Shown one piece after another: positions 13,727 to 52,518 of a DNA stretch of 64,000 nt. The translations under genes and the position numbers were made by a program. Below the pieces are notes generated by a model. The model was not told where the DNA came from and searched no databases. It worked only from the letters and a program-made list of their open reading frames with translations. How positions within the stretch are numbered: the stretch's first letter is position 1; each line of letters begins with the position of its first letter. This DNA is from an uncultured Enterobacteriaceae bacterium (GTDB taxonomy: Bacteria > Pseudomonadota > Gammaproteobacteria > Burkholderiales > SG8-39), in NCBI GenBank assembly GCA_964583645.1, contig CAZOWR010000001.1, positions 34 to 64,033 on the forward strand. Reading direction: 5' to 3'.

Positions 13727-15419
<1,693 letters not shown>

Positions 15420-23870: not shown

Positions 23871-23900
23871 GGAGGAATCGGGGTCAGACCCCGATTTCAC
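23871..23900. repeat. palindromic unit A (single) of the GGTCAGACC repeat family
   Basis: GGAGGAATCGGGGTCAGACCCCGATTTCAC. AATCGGGGTC / GACCCCGATT form a perfect hairpin 34 nt after the MauG-like stop. Confidence 0.7.
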
Positions 23901-23930
23901 TTGACTCGTATTTAACGGATATGTTAAATA
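23901..23930 (+). promoter_or_regulatory. sigma70-like promoter (TTGACT-N17-TTAAAT) overlapped by an 8-bp inverted repeat TATTTAAC-N6-GTTAAATA (ArsR/SmtB-type operator candidate)
   Basis: A striking AT-rich island in a GC-rich context. A perfect inverted repeat at 23909-23930 spans the spacer, the putative -10 and ATG 23921. Confidence 0.5.
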
Positions 23931-24259
23931 AGAGCGTAGTGGACCAGCTTTCGACGACGTTCGCCGCCCTCGCCGACCCGACCCGGCGCGCGATCCTCGC
24001 GCGCCTGGCGAAGGGCGAAGCGACGGTCGGCGACCTCGCGAGGCCCTTCGACATCTCGCTGCCCGCGGTTTCGCGCCACCTCAAGGTGCTCGCCGGCGCG
24101 GGCCTGATCGAGCGCGAGGTGGACGCGCAGTGGCGGCTGTGCCGGATCAAGGGCCGCCCGTTGCGCGAGGCGCACGGCTGGCTGGAGCGCTACCGCAAGT
24201 ACTGGGACGAGAGCCTCGAGCGCCTCGCCGAATACCTGGAGAAGGAGGAAGCATCATGA
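23921..24259 (+). CDS. ArsR/SmtB-family metalloregulator-type transcriptional repressor
   Basis: Tail of track ORF 22913..24259. FAALADPTRRAILARL...ATVGDLA...ISLPAVSRHLKVL. An alternative in-frame GTG is at 23939. Confidence 0.85.
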   Translation: MLNKSVVDQLSTTFAALADPTRRAILARLAKGEATVGDLARPFDISLPAVSRHLKVLAGAGLIEREVDAQWRLCRIKGRPLREAHGWLERYRKYWDESLERLAEYLEKEEAS

Positions 24260-34975: not shown

Positions 34976-35916
34976 GGACGCGCATCACGGCGCTGCTCGG
35001 CATCGAGCACCCGATCTTCCAGGCCGCGATGAGCTGGGCCTCGTCCAGTTCGGCGCTCGTGGTCGCGGTGTCGAACGCGGGCGGCATGGGCGTCATCGCC
35101 GGCGGCCCGATGCGCACGCCGGACTTCGCGCGCGCGCTCGCCGAGATCAGGGCGGGCACGGCCAGGCCCTGGGGCGTCAACATCCCGCTCACCAACCCGC
35201 GGGCTCGCGAACTGCTCGACATCGCCTACGAGGCGCGCGTCCCGGTGATGGTCGCCTCGCAGGGCGGGCCGCGCGAGCACCTGGCGCGCTTTCGCGCCAT
35301 CGGCACGAAGTGGCTCCACGTGGTGGCGTCGGTGGAGCACGCGCGCAAGGCCGAAGCCGCGGGCGTGGACGCGCTCGTCGTGGACGGCGCGGAAGCCGGC
35401 GGCCACCCGCCGCCCTCGGAAGTCGGCACGCTCGTCCTCGTGAGGCGGATCGTGCGGGCGACGCAGCTCCCGGTCGTGGCGAGCGGCGGCATCGCGGACG
35501 GCGCCGGCATCGCGGCGATGCTCGCGCTCGGGGCGGACGCGGTGCAGCTCGGCACGCGCTTCATCGCCACGCCCGAGGCGAGCGTGCACGAGAACTACAA
35601 GCGCGCGGTGCTCGCCGCGGACGTGGACGGCTCGACCATCGTGTCGCGCGGCCACCACCCGATCCGGCAGCTGAAGAACGCCTTCTCGGCGAAGTTCGAG
35701 GCGGCGGAGCGCGCGGGCGCTGCGCGCGAGACGCTGCAGGCCATCTTCGATGGCGCGAGCCTGAGGCAGGCGGCGCTCGACGGCGACGTCGAGTGGGGCA
35801 AGCTCGAGGCCGGGCAGTCGGCCGGGCTGGTCGAGGAGATCCTGCCCGCCGCCGAGGTCATGCAGCGCCTCGTGGCGGAGCTGGAGGAGGCGAGGCGGAG
35901 GCTTGCCGCGCTGTGA
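34972..35916 (+). CDS. nitronate monooxygenase (2-nitropropane dioxygenase-like, FMN TIM barrel)
   Basis: Tail of track ORF 34408..35916. GTG 34972 overlaps the MarR stop (GTGA). GIEHPIFQAAMSW, GAEAGGH, ASGGIADG, GTRF. Confidence 0.8.
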   Translation: MRTRITALLGIEHPIFQAAMSWASSSSALVVAVSNAGGMGVIAGGPMRTPDFARALAEIRAGTARPWGVNIPLTNPRARELLDIAYEARVPVMVASQGGPREHLARFRAIGTKWLHVVASVEHARKAEAAGVDALVVDGAEAGGHPPPSEVGTLVLVRRIVRATQLPVVASGGIADGAGIAAMLALGADAVQLGTRFIATPEASVHENYKRAVLAADVDGSTIVSRGHHPIRQLKNAFSAKFEAAERAGAARETLQAIFDGASLRQAALDGDVEWGKLEAGQSAGLVEEILPAAEVMQRLVAELEEARRRLAAL

Positions 35917-35977
35917 AGAAGCAGGGTCAGAGCACCGCTTCCGGACCGGAGAAAACGTGGCCTGACCCCGTTTTGCG
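35915..35977. repeat. palindromic doublet B of the GGTCAGACC repeat family
   Basis: GAAGAAGCAGGGTCAGAGCACCGCTTCC (35915-35942) and CCGGAGAAAACGTGGCCTGACCCCGTTTTGC (35946-35976). Degenerate relative to doublets D and E. Confidence 0.6.
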
Positions 35978-37587: not shown

Positions 37588-38772
37588 GTGAAGCCGCTCG
37601 AGCACCTGACGATCCTCGACCTGTCGCGGGTGCTGGCCTGTCCCTTCGCCGGCATGATCCTCGCCGAGCTCGGCGCGCGCGTCATCAAGGTCGAGCAGCC
37701 AGGCATGGGCGACGAGACGCGCGGCTTCGAGCCGCGCCTCGCCCGGGACAGCGCCTACTACTTCGCCTGCAACCGCTCCAAGGCCTCGATCACGGTGGAC
37801 CTGCGCCACCCGGAAGGCCGCGCCATCATCCGCGCGCTCGCGCAGAAGGCCGACGCGCTGGTGGAGAACTTCCCGGTCGGCAGCCTCGCGCGCCACGGTC
37901 TGGACTTCCCCACCCTGTCTGCGCTCAACCCGCGCCTCGTCTATGTCTCCTGCACGGGCTTCGGCCAGACCGGACCCTACGCGCGCAGGAAGGGCTACGA
38001 CACGGTGTTCCAGGCGATGGGCGGCCTGATGAGCCTGACCGGCGAGAAGGGCGGCGGCCCGGTCAAGCCGGGGCTGCCGATCGCGGATCTCAGCTCGGGC
38101 CTGTGGGTGGCGATCGGGCTGCTGGCGCTGCTCGCGGGGCGCAGCCGCACCGGGCACGGGGCGCGCCTCGACTTCTCGATGCTGGACGGGCAGGTGGCGC
38201 TCCTCACGCTCGCCGCGGCGCGCTACTTCGCGCTCGGCGAGGTGCCGCCGCGCCTGGGCACCGAGCATCCCGGGCGCGTGCCGAGCGCCACCTTCCGCTG
38301 CGCCTGCGGCCGCTACGCGCACCTCACCGCGAGCGACCAGCACTGGGCGCCGCTGTGCCGCGCCCTCGGCCTGGAGAAAATGGGGTCAGACCACGATTTC
38401 TCGGACAACGCGAAGCGCGTGGCGCGCCGCGACGAGGTGATGGCGGCGCTGACCGAGGCGATCGCGGCGCTGCCGCGGGACGAGCTGATCGCGCGGCTGG
38501 ACGCGGCCGACGTGCCCGCAGGGCCGGTGCACGACGTCGCCGAGATCCTGGCCGATGCGCACGTGAGGGCGCGGCGGCTGGTGGGCAGCTTCGACTATCC
38601 CGAGGTGGGCGAATTCAGGGCGCTGGGCCTGCCCTACAGGTTCCTCGGCTGGGACGACCCGGAGATCGGGGCGCCGCCGGCGCTGGGCGCCGACACCGAG
38701 CGCGTGCTCTCGGAGATGCTCGGCTATTCCGCCGAGCGCATCGGCGAGCTGCGCGCGGCGAAGGCGATATGA
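37588..38772 (+). CDS. family III CoA-transferase (CaiB/BaiF)
   Basis: 394 aa. LTILDLSRVLACPFAGMILAELGARVIKVE, NFPVGSL, GYDTVFQAMGGLMS. Confidence 0.85.
   Translation: MKPLEHLTILDLSRVLACPFAGMILAELGARVIKVEQPGMGDETRGFEPRLARDSAYYFACNRSKASITVDLRHPEGRAIIRALAQKADALVENFPVGSLARHGLDFPTLSALNPRLVYVSCTGFGQTGPYARRKGYDTVFQAMGGLMSLTGEKGGGPVKPGLPIADLSSGLWVAIGLLALLAGRSRTGHGARLDFSMLDGQVALLTLAAARYFALGEVPPRLGTEHPGRVPSATFRCACGRYAHLTASDQHWAPLCRALGLEKMGSDHDFSDNAKRVARRDEVMAALTEAIAALPRDELIARLDAADVPAGPVHDVAEILADAHVRARRLVGSFDYPEVGEFRALGLPYRFLGWDDPEIGAPPALGADTERVLSEMLGYSAERIGELRAAKAI
38373..38400. repeat. palindromic unit C (single), embedded in-frame in the CoA-transferase CDS
   Basis: GGAGAAAATGGGGTCAGACCACGATTTC. 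The 19 nt GGGTCAGACCACGATTTC(+G) are identical to unit E1. Encodes EKMGSDHDF. Confidence 0.6.
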
Positions 38773-46771: not shown

Positions 46772-47209
46772 ATGCAGGAGCACAGCTTTCTGCTGCGGGA
46801 AGGGCTGTGGCGCGCCGAGGGGGAGTTCATCGACGGCGCCGGCACGTCGAGTGCGGTGGAAGGCGAGGCGCACATCCGCCACTATCCGGAGAAGTGGATC
46901 TACGAGGGCGTGCTGCGCACGCGCGGCGCGAAGCCGGCCGAGCACCGCACGCGCTACGAGATCCAGCCCTTCCCGCCGGGCAACTTCGCCACCGGCTGGA
47001 CCTCGAGCAGCGCCTCCATCGGCACGCTGCACGGGCGCTTTCTCATCGTCGGCGACGCGATCCTCTCGGTGTTCGAGTCGGCGACCGGCCGCTACCGCGG
47101 CCAGGACACCCTCCTGCGGCGCGACGAGCGGCGCTACAGCGCGCGCGGCGCGCTGTTCGACGGCCCGAAGCTGCTCTCGGCCTGGGCGATCGAGCTCACC
47201 CAGCCCTGA
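46772..47209 (+). CDS. hypothetical protein (beta-rich, lipocalin-like guess)
   Basis: 145-aa ORF with normal composition and GC3 bias. I recognised no family motif. Confidence 0.5.
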   Translation: MQEHSFLLREGLWRAEGEFIDGAGTSSAVEGEAHIRHYPEKWIYEGVLRTRGAKPAEHRTRYEIQPFPPGNFATGWTSSSASIGTLHGRFLIVGDAILSVFESATGRYRGQDTLLRRDERRYSARGALFDGPKLLSAWAIELTQP

Positions 47210-47269
47210 GAAACGGGGTCAGACCACGTTTTCCACGAACGAAAACGTGGTCTGACCCTATTTCCGGAG
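47208..47269. repeat. palindromic doublet D of the GGTCAGACC repeat family (best copy; bidirectional terminator-like hairpin)
   Basis: GGGTCAGACCACGTTTTC (47216-47233) and GAAAACGTGGTCTGACCC (47241-47258) are exact reverse complements with a 7-nt loop. The element fills the gap between two convergent stop codons. Confidence 0.8.
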
Positions 47270-48670
47270 TTTCGAGAGGTCGGGCATGGGCAGCGGATGC
47301 ACCGCCTCGAAGGCGCGCGCGGCGCGCAGCACGAGGGCGTCGGCGTAGCGCGGCCCGACGATGTGCAGCCCCACCGGCAGGCCTTTCCCGGTAAGGCCGC
47401 AGGGAATGCTCGCCGCCGGCTGCTGCGTGAGGTTGAACGGGTAGGTGAAGGGCGTCCAGTCGGTCCAGCGCTTCTCGCGCAGCAGATTCGAGACCTCCTT
47501 GCCGGCCTCGAAGGCTGCGAGCGGCAGCGTCGGCGTCAGCAGCAGGTCGTACTTCCGGTGGAAGAGATTCATCAGCGCGCCGAGCGCGCCGCGCTGCGCC
47601 ACCGCGGCGAGGTAGTCCCTGGTGGAGATTCTCTCGCCCTGGCGCGCGACCTCGAGCAGCCCCTTGTCCACCAGAGGACGCTTGCGCGGGTGGATGGCCC
47701 GCACGATGCCGGCAGCGCCGGGGAACCAGTGGTTCGTGAAGACGCTCAGCTGGTCCTCGAACCCCGGGTCTGTCGCCTCCACGCGCGCGCCGAGCTCGGA
47801 GAGGCTGCGCGCCGCGCGCTTCACGAGGCGCGCCACCTCCGGGTCCACCTTGGCGTAGCCGAGGTCGGCGGAGTACGCGATGCGCAGCCCGCGCACCCCG
47901 TCCTCCAGCCCGACGCGATAGTCGCGCGGATCGGGGGGCAGCGCGTGCCAGTCGCGCGCGTCCGGCGCTGCAATGACGTTCATGAGCAGCGCCGCGTCAG
48001 CCACCGAGCGCGTGATCGGCCCTACGTGCGCCACCGTGCCCATGGGCGAGAGCGGCCACGCCGGCACCCGGCCGAAGCTGGGCTTGAGGCCGAACAGGCC
48101 GGTGAAGGCGCAGGGAATGCGGATCGAGCCGCCGCCGTCGGTGCCCAGCGTCAGCGGTCCCATGCCGGAAGCGACCGCGGCCGCGCTGCCGCCCGAGGAG
48201 CCGCCGGGCGTCTTCCGGGTATCCCAGGGATTCCGGGTGATCCCGGTGAGCGGGCTGTCGGTAACCCCCTTCCAGCCGAATTCGGGCGTCGTGGTCTTGC
48301 CGAGGATCACCGCGCCGTGCTCGCGCAGGCGCGCGACGCTCGGCGCGTCGTCGCGCCAGGGTCCCTTCGGGTCCACGGTCCGCGAGCCGCGCAGCGTGGG
48401 CCAGCCGCGCGTCAGCAGCAGATCCTTTACCGAGACCGGCACGCCGTCGAGCAGGCCTCTGGGCTCGTTGCTGCGCCAGCGCGCCTCGGATTCGCGCGCC
48501 GCCTTGAGCGCCGCTTGCGCGTCGACGAGCTTGAACGCGTTGAGCACGGGATTGAGCTGCCCGATGCGCGCGAGCACCGCGCGCGTCGCTTCGACCGGCG
48601 AGAGCGCGCGCCGCCGATAGGCAGCGAGCAGTTCGGTGGCGGTGAGCGAACAAGGATCGGAGGATTTCAT
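47258..48670 (-). CDS. amidase-signature (AS) family amidase
   Basis: Track ORF 47258..48808 from ATG 48670. GGSSGGSAAAVA and GTDGGGSIRIPCAF (Ser-cisSer-Lys signature region). Confidence 0.85.
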   Translation of the reverse strand: MKSSDPCSLTATELLAAYRRRALSPVEATRAVLARIGQLNPVLNAFKLVDAQAALKAARESEARWRSNEPRGLLDGVPVSVKDLLLTRGWPTLRGSRTVDPKGPWRDDAPSVARLREHGAVILGKTTTPEFGWKGVTDSPLTGITRNPWDTRKTPGGSSGGSAAAVASGMGPLTLGTDGGGSIRIPCAFTGLFGLKPSFGRVPAWPLSPMGTVAHVGPITRSVADAALLMNVIAAPDARDWHALPPDPRDYRVGLEDGVRGLRIAYSADLGYAKVDPEVARLVKRAARSLSELGARVEATDPGFEDQLSVFTNHWFPGAAGIVRAIHPRKRPLVDKGLLEVARQGERISTRDYLAAVAQRGALGALMNLFHRKYDLLLTPTLPLAAFEAGKEVSNLLREKRWTDWTPFTYPFNLTQQPAASIPCGLTGKGLPVGLHIVGPRYADALVLRAARAFEAVHPLPMPDLSKLRK

Positions 48671-48674
48671 CGGG

Positions 48675-49547
48675 TCACCTGTCGAGTGCGAGCGAGGATC
48701 GGGTGCCGAACACCCAGCCGCCCGCGAGCGCCGGCGGCAGGATCGCGGCATAGAGTGCGGGGCGCAGCGCTCTGACGGCCGCACCGGTTTGCGCGAGGCG
48801 CGCCGCAAGCGCGGCCGGGTCGGCGCACCGCAACGCGTATCCCGCGAGCGCGGGTCCGGGCGGAGGCGCTGCGCCGAAGATCGCCTGCCAGTCGCGATCG
48901 CTGCCGATCAGGACGTCGCCGCGCTCGCTGCGCAGATGCACGAAAGGCCCGGCCGGGCGCGGCAGGAGCGCGGCGAACTCCGCCCAGCGCGCCGCCGCCT
49001 GCGACGGATCGTCCGCGACGACGAACGCGCAGGCGAGGCCGGTGACGCCGTTCTCGTGCCCCATCCAGCGCTCGTGCCAGAGCACCTCGGGCGTCAGGTG
49101 CTGCACGAACTGCACGCGCCCCTCGGGCATCGCCTCGGGCGCGGCGCGGATCACCCGGAACCGCGCGAGGCCGGTCTCGGTCTCGCGCCGCAGCTCGACC
49201 GGCGGCTGCGGCCGCAAGCCGTGCGCCGCGAGCCGCGCGTGCTCCTCTTCGGCGGCCGGCGTGCCGAAGCAGGCGAGGTGCACGCCGGGGTAGCGGCGCA
49301 TCGTCGCGCGCAGCCGCCCGGCGTTCGGCGTCGGCGCGGTCGGGGCGAGGAACTCGAGGTAGCCCTCCCGGAGCATGACGCAGACGTTGGCGGTTCCGGC
49401 CGGGCCGTCCTGCGTCGCCTGCGCCGACTCCGGCGTCACCGCGAAGCCGAGGGCGCGCAGCGCGCGCGCCGCCGCGCCCAGGTCGGGCACGAAGTGCGAA
49501 ACGTGATCGAGCACGAGGCTCCCGGGCGGCGGGACGGGGCGGGGCAC
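48675..49547 (-). CDS. VOC (glyoxalase/bleomycin-resistance/dioxygenase-like) domain protein
   Basis: 290 aa. LDHVSHFVPDL start and a two-module layout. The family call is tentative. Confidence 0.55.
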   Translation of the reverse strand: MPRPVPPPGSLVLDHVSHFVPDLGAAARALRALGFAVTPESAQATQDGPAGTANVCVMLREGYLEFLAPTAPTPNAGRLRATMRRYPGVHLACFGTPAAEEEHARLAAHGLRPQPPVELRRETETGLARFRVIRAAPEAMPEGRVQFVQHLTPEVLWHERWMGHENGVTGLACAFVVADDPSQAAARWAEFAALLPRPAGPFVHLRSERGDVLIGSDRDWQAIFGAAPPPGPALAGYALRCADPAALAARLAQTGAAVRALRPALYAAILPPALAGGWVFGTRSSLALDR

Positions 49548-49564: not shown

Positions 49565-51268
49565 GTGAACAAGCCGGTCGAGCCGCAGGTGGCGACGGTC
49601 ACGGGCGCCGAAGCCGTGGTGGCGGTGCTCAAGGCGCACGGCGTGGAGGTGATCTTCGGTCTGTGCGGCGACACCAGCCTGCCGCTGTACGACGCGCTCG
49701 CGCGCCTGCCCCACGGCATGCGCCACGTGCTGACGCGCGACGAGCGCCACGCCGCCTACATGGCGGACGGCTACGCGCGCGTCTCGGGGCGGGTCGGCGT
49801 CTGCGAGGGGCCGTCGGGGGGCGGCGCGACCTACATCCTCCCGGGTCTGGCCGAGGCGAACGAGTCCTCGGTGCCGCTGCTCGCGATCAACACCGACGTG
49901 TCGGTCGCCTCGCGCGGCCGCTTCACGCTCACCGAGCTCGACCAGGGCGCACTGATGAGGCCCGTCACCAAGTGGAACGCGGTGATCGAGCGCTCGCAGG
50001 ACATCCCGCGCACGCTGCGCGCCGCCTTCAACGCGATCACGACGGGACGGCCCGGGGCCGCGCACGTCGCGCTGCCGTTCGACGTGCAGAACGGGCCCGT
50101 GGAGCGCGCCGAGCTCTGGGGCGATCCGAGCCTCGCGCAGGCGCCTTCGCGCCGCGTCGCGCCCGACCCGTTGCACGTCGAGCTCGCGGCGAAGCTGCTG
50201 CGCCGCGCGAGTCGTCCGCTGCTCATCTGCGGCGGTGGCGTGGTGAGCTCCGGCGCCGAAGGCGAGCTCGCCGAGCTCGCCGAGCTGCTCTCGGCCCCGG
50301 TGGCGACCACGGTGAGCGGGCAGGGCGCGATTCCAGACGAGCATCCGCTCGCGGTGGGCGTGGTGGGCTCCAACGGCGGCACGCCGGAGACGCGCGCCGT
50401 CGTGGACGGCGCCGACCTCGTCTTCTTCGTCGCCTGCCGCGCCGGGTCGGTGACCACCGAGCGCTGGCGCCATCCCGCGCCCGGCAACGCGAGGATCGTG
50501 CACCTGGACGTCGATCCGCGCGCGATCGGCGCGAACTACAAGGTGGATGTGCCCCTGGTGGCGGATGCGAAGCTCGGCCTCGCGGCGCTCAACGAGGCGC
50601 TGGAGGGTACGAAGCGGCCGCTCGATGCCGCCGGCGTGCAGAAGGCCCGTGCGGCAAAGCTCGCCAGGTTCGAGCAGCTCGCGCGCTCCGACGAGGCGCC
50701 GATCCGCCCGGAGCGGGTGGTGGCGGAGATGGCCGCCGCGCTCGACCCGGACGCGATGCTCGCGCTCGATCCGGGGACGCCCTGCCCGTACTTCTCGGCC
50801 TTCTACCCGATCCGCGGCACCGGGCGGCGCGTGTTCTCGAACCGCGCGCACGGCGCGCTCGGCTACGCGATGTCGGCGGCGATCGGGGCGCATTTCGCGC
50901 GTCCCGCGGTGAAGACGGTGGCGGTGATGGGCGACGGCAGCTTCGGGATGTGCGCCGGAGAGCTGGAGACCGCGGTACGGCTCGGGCTCCCGGTCACTTT
51001 CGTCGTCCTGTCGAACGCGGTGTACGGCTGGATCAAGGCGGGGCAGAAGTCCGGCTACGGCGCGCGCTACTTCGCGGTGGACTTCGGCGTCACCGACCAC
51101 GCTCGCGTCGCCGAGGCCTACGGGCTGAAGAGCTGGCGCGTGACCGAGCCGCGCGAGCTGGGCGAGGCGTTTTCGGCCGCGTTCGCGCACGGCGGACCCT
51201 CGCTCGTGGACGTGGTCTGCCAGCCGCTGCAGGAGGCGCGCGCGCCGGTCTCGGAGTGGGTCGCGTGA
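49565..51268 (+). CDS. thiamine-diphosphate-dependent enzyme (acetolactate synthase large subunit-like)
   Basis: 567 aa. VTGAEAVVAVLKAHGVEVIFGLCGD at the N-terminus, and the GDGSF...N TPP-binding motif (VMGDGSFGM...LSNAVYG). Confidence 0.8.
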   Translation: MNKPVEPQVATVTGAEAVVAVLKAHGVEVIFGLCGDTSLPLYDALARLPHGMRHVLTRDERHAAYMADGYARVSGRVGVCEGPSGGGATYILPGLAEANESSVPLLAINTDVSVASRGRFTLTELDQGALMRPVTKWNAVIERSQDIPRTLRAAFNAITTGRPGAAHVALPFDVQNGPVERAELWGDPSLAQAPSRRVAPDPLHVELAAKLLRRASRPLLICGGGVVSSGAEGELAELAELLSAPVATTVSGQGAIPDEHPLAVGVVGSNGGTPETRAVVDGADLVFFVACRAGSVTTERWRHPAPGNARIVHLDVDPRAIGANYKVDVPLVADAKLGLAALNEALEGTKRPLDAAGVQKARAAKLARFEQLARSDEAPIRPERVVAEMAAALDPDAMLALDPGTPCPYFSAFYPIRGTGRRVFSNRAHGALGYAMSAAIGAHFARPAVKTVAVMGDGSFGMCAGELETAVRLGLPVTFVVLSNAVYGWIKAGQKSGYGARYFAVDFGVTDHARVAEAYGLKSWRVTEPRELGEAFSAAFAHGGPSLVDVVCQPLQEARAPVSEWVA

Positions 51269-51594
51269 CGCTCGAGCTCGAGCCCGGGCGCGGGCACCAC
51301 GACATGGGCGGGCTGCCGGCGGGCCGCGTCGAGCGCACCGAGCACGACTACGCGGAGTGGGAGCGGCGCGTGGACGCGATGATGGTGATCCTCTCGGGCG
51401 TGAAGGGCGGGCGCAAGCTCATGACGGTGGACGAGCTGCGCAAGAACATCGAGGCCATCGGCCCCGAGGCCTACGACCGCATGAGCTACTACGAGCGCTG
51501 GATCACCTCCATCACGCAGACCATGATCCAGCGCGGCGTCATCACCACCGAGGAGCTGGGCCGCAAGATGGAGGAGGTGAAGCGCCGTGCCTGA
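51265..51594 (+). CDS. nitrile hydratase beta subunit, N-terminal-half protein (SCNase-beta/ToyL-K-like split subunit)
   Basis: Tail of track ORF 49561..51594. GTG 51265 overlaps the upstream stop (GTGA). HHDMGG compares with the NHase beta IHD(L/T)GG start. AEWERRVDAMM, YYERWI. Confidence 0.65.
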   Translation: MTLELEPGRGHHDMGGLPAGRVERTEHDYAEWERRVDAMMVILSGVKGGRKLMTVDELRKNIEAIGPEAYDRMSYYERWITSITQTMIQRGVITTEELGRKMEEVKRRA

Positions 51595-51925
51595 ACCGGA
51601 GAAACAGGGTCAGACCACGATTTCCACGGAAGGAAGCGTGGTCGACCCCCGTTTTTCCGCAGGCGATCGGGTCAGGGTTCGCAAGGCGTATCCCCTGGGC
51701 CACATCCGCACACCGTTCTACGTGCGCGGGCTCACCGGCGAGGTGGAGCGCCTTTGCGGCAGCTTCCCCAACCCAGAGGAACTGGCGCAGATGCGCGACG
51801 GCCTGCCGCGCCGGCCGCTGTATCGCGTGCGCTTCGTGCAGCACGACCTCTGGCCCGACTACCGTGGCAGGGACGCGGACGCGGTGGAGGTCGAGATCTT
51901 CGAGCACTGGCTGGAGCCGGCGTGA
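51587..51925 (+). CDS. nitrile hydratase beta subunit, C-terminal-half protein
   Basis: 112-aa track ORF. The conserved part is FSAGDRVRVRKAYPLGHIRTPFYVRG...PLYRVRF...LW (SH3-like beta C-domain). The start is uncertain: GTG 51587, or the in-frame GTG 51638 preceded by GGAAGGAAG. Confidence 0.7.
   Translation: MPEPEKQGQTTISTEGSVVDPRFSAGDRVRVRKAYPLGHIRTPFYVRGLTGEVERLCGSFPNPEELAQMRDGLPRRPLYRVRFVQHDLWPDYRGRDADAVEVEIFEHWLEPA
51596..51660. repeat. palindromic doublet E of the GGTCAGACC repeat family
   Basis: CCGGAGAAACAGGGTCAGACCACGATTTCC plus GGAAGCGTGGTCGACCCCCGTTTTTCCGC. Starts 2 nt after the beta-N stop codon. Confidence 0.75.
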
Positions 51926-52518
51926 AGCAGGACCCGGGACGCTACCAGCCGCTCAGCTACTTCCAGCTCATGGAGGTGAGCCTGCGCGAGCTGCTGGTCG
52001 AGAAGGGCGTGACCACCGAGGCCGAGGTACGGGCGACGCTGGAGGACGTGCGGGCGCGCACCCCGGAACGCGGCGCGAGGGTGGTGGCGCGCGCCTGGAC
52101 CGACCCGGAATTCAAGGCGCGGCTGCTCGCCGACGGGACCAAAGCCTGCCAGGAGCTCGGCCTGGACGTGCCGGCCCTCAGGCTCGTGGTGGTGGAGAAC
52201 ACGCCGCGGGTGCACAACATGATCGTGTGCACGCTGTGCTCGTGCTATCCGCGGATGCTGCTCGGCCTGCCGCCCGACTGGTACAAGTCGCGCAACTACC
52301 GCTCGCGCGCGGTGCGCGAGCCGCGCGCGGTGCTCGCGGAATTCGGGCTGCGGCTGCCGGACGAAGTGCAGGTGAGGGTGCACGACTCGAGCGCGGACAT
52401 GCGCTACCTCGTGCTGCCGATGCGACCGGCGCAGACCGCAGGCTGGAGCGAGGAGCGGCTCGCGGGCATCGTCACCCGCGACTGCATGATCGGCGTGGCG
52501 GTGCCGGCGGTGAGCTGA
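51922..52518 (+). CDS. nitrile hydratase alpha subunit (cobalt-type VCTLCSC metal site)
   Basis: Inside track ORF 51754..52518. GTG 51922 overlaps the upstream stop (GTGA). VCTLCSCYPRMLLGLPPDWYKSRNYRSRAVREPR. Confidence 0.85.
   Translation: MKQDPGRYQPLSYFQLMEVSLRELLVEKGVTTEAEVRATLEDVRARTPERGARVVARAWTDPEFKARLLADGTKACQELGLDVPALRLVVVENTPRVHNMIVCTLCSCYPRMLLGLPPDWYKSRNYRSRAVREPRAVLAEFGLRLPDEVQVRVHDSSADMRYLVLPMRPAQTAGWSEERLAGIVTRDCMIGVAVPAVS

Follow-up and report, generated by a model that had tools for sequence, protein, structure and literature searches.

Small palindromic repeats, probably of the REP/REPIN class, in an uncultured Burkholderiales bacterium and its relatives

A 64,000-nucleotide (nt) stretch of DNA from an uncultured bacterium of the Burkholderiales (GenBank assembly GCA_964583645.1, contig CAZOWR010000001.1, positions 34 to 64,033; referred to here as the window) contains a palindrome that takes up the gap between two convergent stop codons, and related palindromic units lie at four other loci in the same stretch. 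What kind of element are they, and how did they come to occupy these sites? An earlier reading made from the letters of the window alone (the sequence-only reading) saw in them a dispersed family resembling REP (repetitive extragenic palindromic) sequences and BIMEs (bacterial interspersed mosaic elements), acting as terminator or mRNA-stabilizing hairpins or as protein-binding sites. The copies are discrete insertions that are missing from the equivalent sites in related genomes, and they are probably mobile DNA elements of the REP/REPIN class, small, palindromic, and non-autonomous. The family is a REP-type element not previously catalogued in Rfam or in the searchable literature; the kind of element is ordinary, and the existence of the family is unsurprising because REP-type repeats are common. 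The single surprise is a copy that lies in a coding gene and yet agrees with the variant of its own genome.

Anatomy and distribution of the repeat unit

The pattern GGGTCAGACCACGWTTTC, with up to 3 mismatches allowed, matches the window 7 times, compared with 0.04 ± 0.2 matches in shuffled sequences. When the window is searched with an nhmmer profile built solely from 217 foreign units, exactly 8 units, spread over 5 loci, are recovered (E values from 2e-8 to 0.47), and nothing beyond these 8 rises above noise. Both results bear out the proposal of a dispersed REP/BIME-like family, and re-reading the window confirmed the coordinates and sequences that had been given for its units and arms. 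All five loci are confined to 23.8 to 51.7 kb of the window, which has a G+C content of 71.7%, yields no tRNA in a tRNA scan, and encodes proteins whose nearest named homologues are Burkholderiales and Betaproteobacteria proteins from metagenome-assembled genomes (MAGs). With 8 units in 64 kb, the window has about 1 unit per 8 kb; in syntenic relatives, stretches of 13 to 20 kb contain 0 to 4.

Unit A (23874-23898), a single near-perfect palindrome of sequence GGAATCGGGGTCAGACCCCGATTTC with a profile E value of 1.6e-7, and unit C (38375-38402, forward strand) stand alone, and the other loci are pairs of units (doublets) with the left arm on the forward strand and the right arm on the reverse strand; no strand is assigned to A or to any doublet as a whole. 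Doublet B (35917-35975) has arms at 35917-35942 and 35950-35975 and is degenerate, doublet D (47209-47265) has arms at 47209-47234 and 47240-47265 separated by the loop CACGAAC, and doublet E (51600-51656) has arms at 51600-51625 and 51632-51656. The 7 units other than C lie outside any gene body, with the right arms of B and E overlapping the 5' ends of the downstream open reading frames (ORFs).

Among the matches listed, 224 copies in 101 foreign loci define a unit of about 26 nt with the consensus RAAAWCG-GGGTCAGACC-ACGWTTTC(C). Its stem comprises 9 to 12 bp, A/T-capped and G/C-cored, around a TCAGA center. The boundaries of the unit are sharp at -7 and +18, with information falling off beyond both, and the sequence logo is flat from -8 to -14, showing no conserved bases outside the stem. 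Unit A and its perfect variants have the stem and loop AAATCGGGG / TCAGA / CCCCGATTT; the palindrome of unit A is perfect over 23 bp, and its 25-nt unit has one mismatched outer pair. A unit permits read-through in 5 of the 6 frames and is able to provide a stop or start codon.

The usual form is a head-to-head pair (61 of 72 pairs), a near-perfect palindrome of 55 to 60 bp in which the spacer, of 1 to 17 nt, varies in both length and sequence. In many genomes, a single unit is not self-complementary outside its GGTCNGACC core, and the true palindrome is the doublet. Hairpins of doublets extend over 18 to 25 bp. The predicted RNA fold of D, including its A/T flanks, has a free energy of -42.7 kcal/mol (z = -7.3) and that of E -42.8 kcal/mol (z = -5.5); B, which is decayed, has a z of -0.6. 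The earlier description of the units as mostly inverted pairs able to fold as long hairpins agrees with the orientation of the pairs and with the folds of D and E.

The family was surveyed by an exact-pattern scan with one genome per species, in which more than 101 stretches matched, and genomes other than that of the window were read as 8-kb excerpts (L-numbers below denote sampled stretches of other genomes). Stretches among the matches listed come mostly from Burkholderiales MAGs, and carriers also include Rhodocyclales (Thauera, Propionivibrio, Azonexus, and Sterolibacterium), Gallionellales, several Pseudomonas isolates, Halioglobus, and Wenzhouxiangella. The arms are genome specific: among these matches, GGAAACCG is found in at least 26 units of one MAG and AAAAAATG in at least 19 of another, and the MAG CAZIDY carries at least 26 units in 13 excerpts. 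A blastn search of a plasmid collection with two doublet variants gave no real match, and the survey includes only 7 viral-contig stretches, giving no sign of phage carriage.

Insertions lie at or just past stop codons, mostly between convergent or co-directional genes. By crude gene calls, the 159 classified units comprise 74 between co-directional genes, 58 between convergent genes, and 27 between divergent genes. By the same calls, doublets are nearer to the upstream stop (median, 33 nt) than to the downstream start (median, 80 nt), and single units show no bias in orientation relative to transcription (11 same, 14 opposite). Two stretches (L071, 2365-3016, and L194, 10031-10334) each contain three single units in the same orientation within 300 to 650 nt, a tandem arrangement unlike the usual doublets; the units in L071 adjoin a gene for a FitA-like ribbon-helix-helix antitoxin.

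Filled and empty sites in related genomes

Doublet D fills the 48-bp gap between the TGA (47207-47209) of a forward-strand gene for a conserved 145-amino-acid (aa) protein without a Pfam match (46772-47209) and the TAG (complement of 47258-47260) of a converging reverse-strand amidase gene (47258-48808; 470 aa in the public gene call). Its arms at 47216-47233 and 47241-47258 are exact reverse complements and form an 18-bp stem with a 7-nt CACGAAC loop; the stem, the loop, and the gap between convergent stops had all been described correctly from the sequence. In L111 and L113, two of the syntenic relatives retrieved via neighboring proteins, the 146-aa gene and the amidase gene overlap by 11 nt (TCAGCCCTTGA), and the 56 extra columns of the window at this site are the doublet. 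The amidase ends in KLRK* in the window and in KLKG* in these relatives, the new TAG stop lying within the flank of the element.

Doublet B lies between the stop codon (TGA, 35914-35916) of a nitronate monooxygenase (NMO) gene and an enoyl-CoA hydratase (ECH) gene, and an ORF starting at GTG 35913 runs through it in frame, with an alternative start at TTG 35973. Among 34 orthologous NMO-ECH junctions, about 20 have no insert, their stop and start codons overlapping as ATGA or GTGA, and the filled ones carry singles, doublets, or clusters of differing variants. Decayed doublets occur in the window, L149, and L173, and a cluster occurs in L117. Single GGGGACNGTCCCC or GGTGACAGTCACC units supply a TAA stop in L147, L122, L131, and L156, and an insert of 85 to 90 nt in L163 and L186 contains a GGGACAGACCACG doublet. 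In L109, translation runs through a doublet of the GAGCCC variant, which gives ECH 19 additional aa at its N terminus, and no alternative start codon follows the doublet. The same junction in L106 (2981-3281), and also in L107 and L108, is occupied by an insert of some 300 nt (322 nt by gap measure), AG-rich and unrelated, with terminal inverted repeats of about 20 nt (CTAAAAGAAGGAACGCAAAG / CTTTGCGTTCCTTCCTTTTTTAG), which looks like a different MITE (miniature transposable element with inverted repeats).

Doublet E separates the two genes for the beta subunit of a nitrile hydratase (NHase), lying between the beta-N gene (stop TGA, 51592-51594) and the beta-C gene. GTG 51638 lies in its right arm, which codes for (M)VDPRFS, a peptide that aligns with the beginning of the beta-C gene in relatives. 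L111 has 51 bp fewer at this site and retains a unit-like right arm, AAGCGTGGTTGAGGCCCGCTTCC, in which the unit-like core gives both the beta-N stop and the beta-C GTG start (overlap GTGGTTGA); in L113 the doublet is decayed. The N terminus of beta-C is encoded by the right arm in the window, L111, and L113 alike. The surrounding region (51265-52518) is a nitrile-hydratase-like cluster in which the beta subunit is represented by two ORFs (NHase_beta_N, 51265-51594; NHase_beta_C, from 51587 or 51638 to 51925), followed by an alpha subunit with a CTLCSC metal motif. The point at which the beta subunit is split coincides with unit-like sequence in the window, L111, and L113, and the element may have taken part in the fission of the beta gene or may have occupied the fission point later.

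Unit A adjoins the -35 hexamer (TTGACT) in the promoter of an ArsR-family gene and lies 36 nt past the stop codon of a MauG-like di-heme peroxidase gene. Three relatives (L201 to L203) keep the ArsR sequence TTGACT-N3-ATTTAAC-N6-GTTAAAT without the unit. This sequence (23899-23945 in the window) is a conserved putative promoter/operator directly 5' of the ArsR start codon; most ArsR homologues are 106 aa long, which suggests that the true start in the window is GTG 23939 and not ATG 23924.

A copy within a CoA-transferase gene

Unit C is not intergenic; it sits within the ORF of a CoA-transferase family III gene (37588-38772). It matches the core at 18 of 18 positions, reads ATG GGG TCA GAC CAC GAT TTC, and encodes E-K-M-G-S-D-H-D-F. 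Homologues of equal length have the peptide (K/E)(M/L)GSDPDF at this position, indicating that unit C is not a length-adding insertion. The earlier reading had allowed that the copies might turn out to be a conserved coding motif: unit C does correspond to a conserved peptide, and the other 7 units lie outside gene bodies.

Across 84 orthologous genes, the region of unit C varies in length, and in about 30 of them an in-frame palindromic unit is spelled by rare codons that end in A or T (AAA, TCT/TCA/ACA, GAT/ATT, and TTT), in genes whose G+C content at third codon positions is 0.87 to 0.94. The variants include perfect palindromes that differ from one another by symmetric double changes (GGGGTC.GACCCC, GGGGAC.GTCCCC, and GGTGAC.GTCACC). 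In 28 distinct orthologous sequences, 78.9% of cells are paired, compared with 71.8 ± 1.3% in shuffles (78.9% reached in 0 of 500) and 27 to 53% in slid controls, and double-sided changes number 27, compared with 12.4, with the reservation that both measures can be inflated by relatedness alone.

The copy in the ORF follows the variant of its own genome. All four units of L147, including that in the ORF, share AAATGGGGACNGTCCCCATTT, and all units of the window share GGGTCAGACCACG. Relative to the commonest state among orthologues, unit C of the window differs only by TCT>TCA and CCC>CAC (Pro>His), and these two differences, one of which is nonsynonymous, make it identical to the dispersed core. 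Two explanations would fit this pattern: old copies may have been converted or rewritten, or selection may favor the exact sequence.

The loop that contains unit C (38340-38420 in the window; L106 to L193) is variable in length among orthologues of 75 to 83% identity, occurs in three states (GSDPDF-type, WG(x)--AF-type, and FDLDLS-type), and appears to be a tolerated indel hotspot.

Nature of the family and its rivals

A short dispersed palindrome, mainly extragenic and located between unidirectional or convergent genes, the family has these general features of REPs, a class whose members typically number about 100 or more per genome. The REP superfamilies reviewed by Di Nocera, De Gregorio, and Rocco (2013; PMC3733652) show head-to-head dimers, stop codons supplied by the element, intragenic in-frame units, unidirectional or convergent locations, and A/T-capped stems of 8 to 9 bp with loops of 4 to 5 nt. 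The closest architecture is that of the CGTC superfamily (Neisseria dRS3, Rickettsia RPE-4 and RPE-6, and Cupriavidus taiwanensis CGTC-1; PMC3733652), which shares with the present family an 8- to 9-bp stem with outer A/T pairs, a 4- to 5-nt loop (here TCAGA), a short C-rich tail, a predominance of head-to-head dimers, intragenic in-frame units, and a unidirectional or convergent location; in neither was a dedicated transposase found. However, the unpaired CGTC tag (or TGTC/CCTC) is absent here, the stem and loop sequences are unrelated, and the supplementary lists of that study contain no GTCAGAC or GTCTGAC string. REPINs and their REP-associated tyrosine transposases, RAYTs (Bertels and Rainey 2011, PMC3116915; Nunvar 2010, PMC2817692), offer a second likeness, in that inverted doublets forming a long hairpin are the predominant unit, variants are genome specific, copies are extragenic and biased toward 3' ends, and target duplications are absent; no RAYT was found in the 1.4 Mb of sampled DNA. 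As in the Rickettsia palindromic elements, palindromic repeats are tolerated in coding DNA (unit C, the right arm of E, and the doublet of L109), but sequences and hosts differ, unit C adds no length, and most copies are intergenic.

Rfam searches of the whole window at the gathering threshold and of the D locus at an E value of ≤10 returned, for the repeats, only spurious sub-threshold microRNA-hairpin matches. Searching the literature with 10- to 14-mers of three variants retrieved only eukaryotic and viral primers and no paper quoting the core, so the failure of the sequence-only reading to recognize the consensus matches its absence from these sources. The REPa to REPe consensus sequences of Pseudomonas (PMC3390384) are unrelated, and the Bordetella BRE (PMC3110155) is a tandem repeat of about 90 bp with a different sequence. 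Elsewhere in the window, the Rfam model 5_ureB_sRNA (RF02514) matches 13871-14153 on the reverse strand (86.6 bits), inside a urease gene cluster; the match probably reflects conservation of the ureB coding sequence, picked up by a model of an antisense small RNA, and is not evidence of a small RNA.

Searches for the machinery of mobilization gave negative results. Pfam scans of the 17 ORFs bracketed by units, which have unrelated functions, found no Y1/RAYT match, and ORF clustering found no recurrent ORF family in the 101 loci among the matches listed. A tblastn search of 1.4 Mb with an Escherichia coli RAYT sequence gave no credible match where 0.4 to 2 were expected at best, and a single match in L068 (E = 0.019) was spurious on inspection. 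At 61 doublets, direct repeats of 3 to 5 nt are not enriched at any boundary offset, and the distribution of longest common substrings equals that of the control with the exception of one locus. The fixed-length target-site duplication characteristic of a DDE-type MITE is therefore lacking. A Tn3-family inverted repeat (GGGGTCTGAC...) was considered and rejected: the element runs at least 7 nt (at least 15 nt in L163) outside GGGG, and there is no regular 5-bp target-site duplication. REPs are known targets of insertion sequences (ISs) (PMC3733652), and in Pseudomonas sp. BCA17 (L097, 60-1480), a transposase gene of the IS4 family (NCBIfam NF033591, E = 2e-96) has a full doublet on either side, the two doublets being mutually inverted, and the IS end CTGAGGAATCCCCACAAA abuts the GGTCNGACC core. 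The IS may have gone into a palindrome with three cores, or the doublets may belong to terminal repeats of great length.

Several observations weigh against assigning the family to the REP/REPIN class. No mobilizing transposase was found, a weak negative in view of the fragmentary sampling. The insertion in L163 and L186 is flanked by an ATGAA/TGAA duplication, and a doublet in Pseudoduganella namucuonensis (L021, 4630-4740) is flanked by a perfect 20-nt direct repeat, TAAACGGGCCGGACTAGCCA, the sole such case among the 61 doublets. Unit C reached the family consensus via two point differences, a route that simple transposition leaves unexplained. Burkholderiales, Rhodocyclales, Pseudomonadales, and Cellvibrionales share an identical 18-nt core; REPs tend to be lineage specific, so such identity across orders is unusual, and REPINs in particular are described as lineage restricted. 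Both the GTAG tag, which each REP of the REPIN/RAYT system carries, and the CGTC tag are absent from this family, the window having GGAG or TGAG at four left arms only. Finally, the spacers are variable and 1 to 17 nt long, unlike those of REPINs, which are family specific at about 60 to 70 bp (PMC3390384).

In line with one proposal of the sequence-only reading, the doublets could be primarily bidirectional intrinsic terminators or mRNA 3'-end stabilizers recruited at gene ends, an account that we consider unlikely for the family in general. Doublets do present an A-tract, a G/C-rich hairpin, and a T-tract on both strands (GAAAWCG, a 19-bp G/C-rich stem, and CGWTTTC), their folds are very stable, and units occur near stop codons and are enriched between convergent genes, with D placed exactly between two convergent stops. 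However, the T-tracts, of 3 to 4 T, are short and stand apart from the stem, with CG in between, and no doublet is called by a simple terminator scan. Moreover, orthologues of the genes flanking B and E overlap by 4 to 8 nt (ATGA between NMO and ECH; GTGGTTGA between beta-N and beta-C), indicating that these doublets lie inside operons, where efficient termination would be polar; a general role in termination is unlikely on this ground. Nor does it account for unit C within an ORF, for the 27 units between divergent genes, or for the absence of orientation bias among single units, which argues against any strand-specific RNA function. The doublets may have a modest mRNA-stabilizing or attenuating side effect.

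It is also improbable that the units are binding sites of a host protein kept by selection (a nucleoid-associated or gyrase-like protein, or a GntR/FadR-type dimer on GGTC-N-GACC), with variants reflecting the co-evolution of protein and site and with mobility secondary. Dyad symmetry centered on GGTCNGACC, changes among variants that preserve symmetry, a copy within an ORF that matches the variant of its own genome, a core identical across orders, and the lack of strand bias in single units would all suit such sites. Yet single units are often non-palindromic outside the core (the GGAAACCG and ACGATTTC arms are unpaired), the loci lie between convergent genes and inside operons with no shared gene function, and no candidate protein was found; the presence or absence of copies at orthologous sites shows that they are dispensable. 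The locations between convergent genes and inside operons likewise led us to reject a GntR/FadR-type operator (TGGTCNGACCA) as the principal explanation. Accumulation of the motif by biased uptake and recombination, as with the DNA uptake sequence (DUS) of Neisseria or the uptake signal sequence (USS) of Pasteurellaceae, is very improbable. These too are short motifs, conserved across related genera, that are found within coding sequences and, at gene ends, as inverted pairs; the core GTGGTCTGAC presumably matches the Neisseria DUS GCCGTCTGAA at 7 of 10 positions, and the copy in the ORF became the genome consensus through point differences. But DUS and USS occur at about 1 per kb, an order of magnitude more densely than the present units (8 in 64 kb; 0 to 4 per 13 to 20 kb in relatives), the unit is longer (26 nt, with genome-specific arms), and D and several copies at the B junction arose as discrete insertions of 50 to 90 bp, not by point mutation.

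If the copies are mobile elements of the REP/REPIN class, their spread would be catalyzed in trans by a sequence-specific enzyme that recognizes the hairpin when the DNA is single stranded. The best fit would be an HUH/tyrosine transposase of the RAYT or IS200/IS605 type, because consistent target duplication is lacking, the elements have the form of hairpins, and the variants are genome specific. The same process of recognition and copying may keep old copies, including that in the CoA-transferase gene, matched to the current variant. Transcribed doublets would form very stable RNA hairpins, and any protection of upstream 3' ends or damping of read-through by them would be a side effect and not the reason for which the elements exist. 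A bolder and rather doubtful proposal is that the GGGGTCAGACC elements constitute a third, tagless REP superfamily of Beta- and Gammaproteobacteria, in which a sequence-specific machinery other than a GTAG-type RAYT both inserts copies and rewrites them to one variant per genome, including the CoA-transferase copy and with a change in the protein (Pro replaced by His in the window; in relatives, GSDP to GTVP to VTVT).

The orthologous sites provide a natural set of filled and empty positions, with one operon junction colonized repeatedly in different lineages, and they show how palindromes fit into overlaps of stop and start codons with both genes kept alive. Public gene calls translate doublet E as part of the NHase beta-C subunit; since gene callers read through the units, start-site calls beside these elements are unreliable. 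With this family, uncultured Burkholderiales join the hosts of small palindromic repeats that carry neither a GTAG nor a CGTC tag. Two of its features go beyond the routine: the 18-nt core shared across orders and the coding copy that seems to evolve in concert with the dispersed copies. Conservation of the core across orders raises the question of which enzyme moves these elements, and unit C, which tracks the variant of its own genome and shows compensatory changes, offers a testable case of the concerted evolution of repeats and a coding site.

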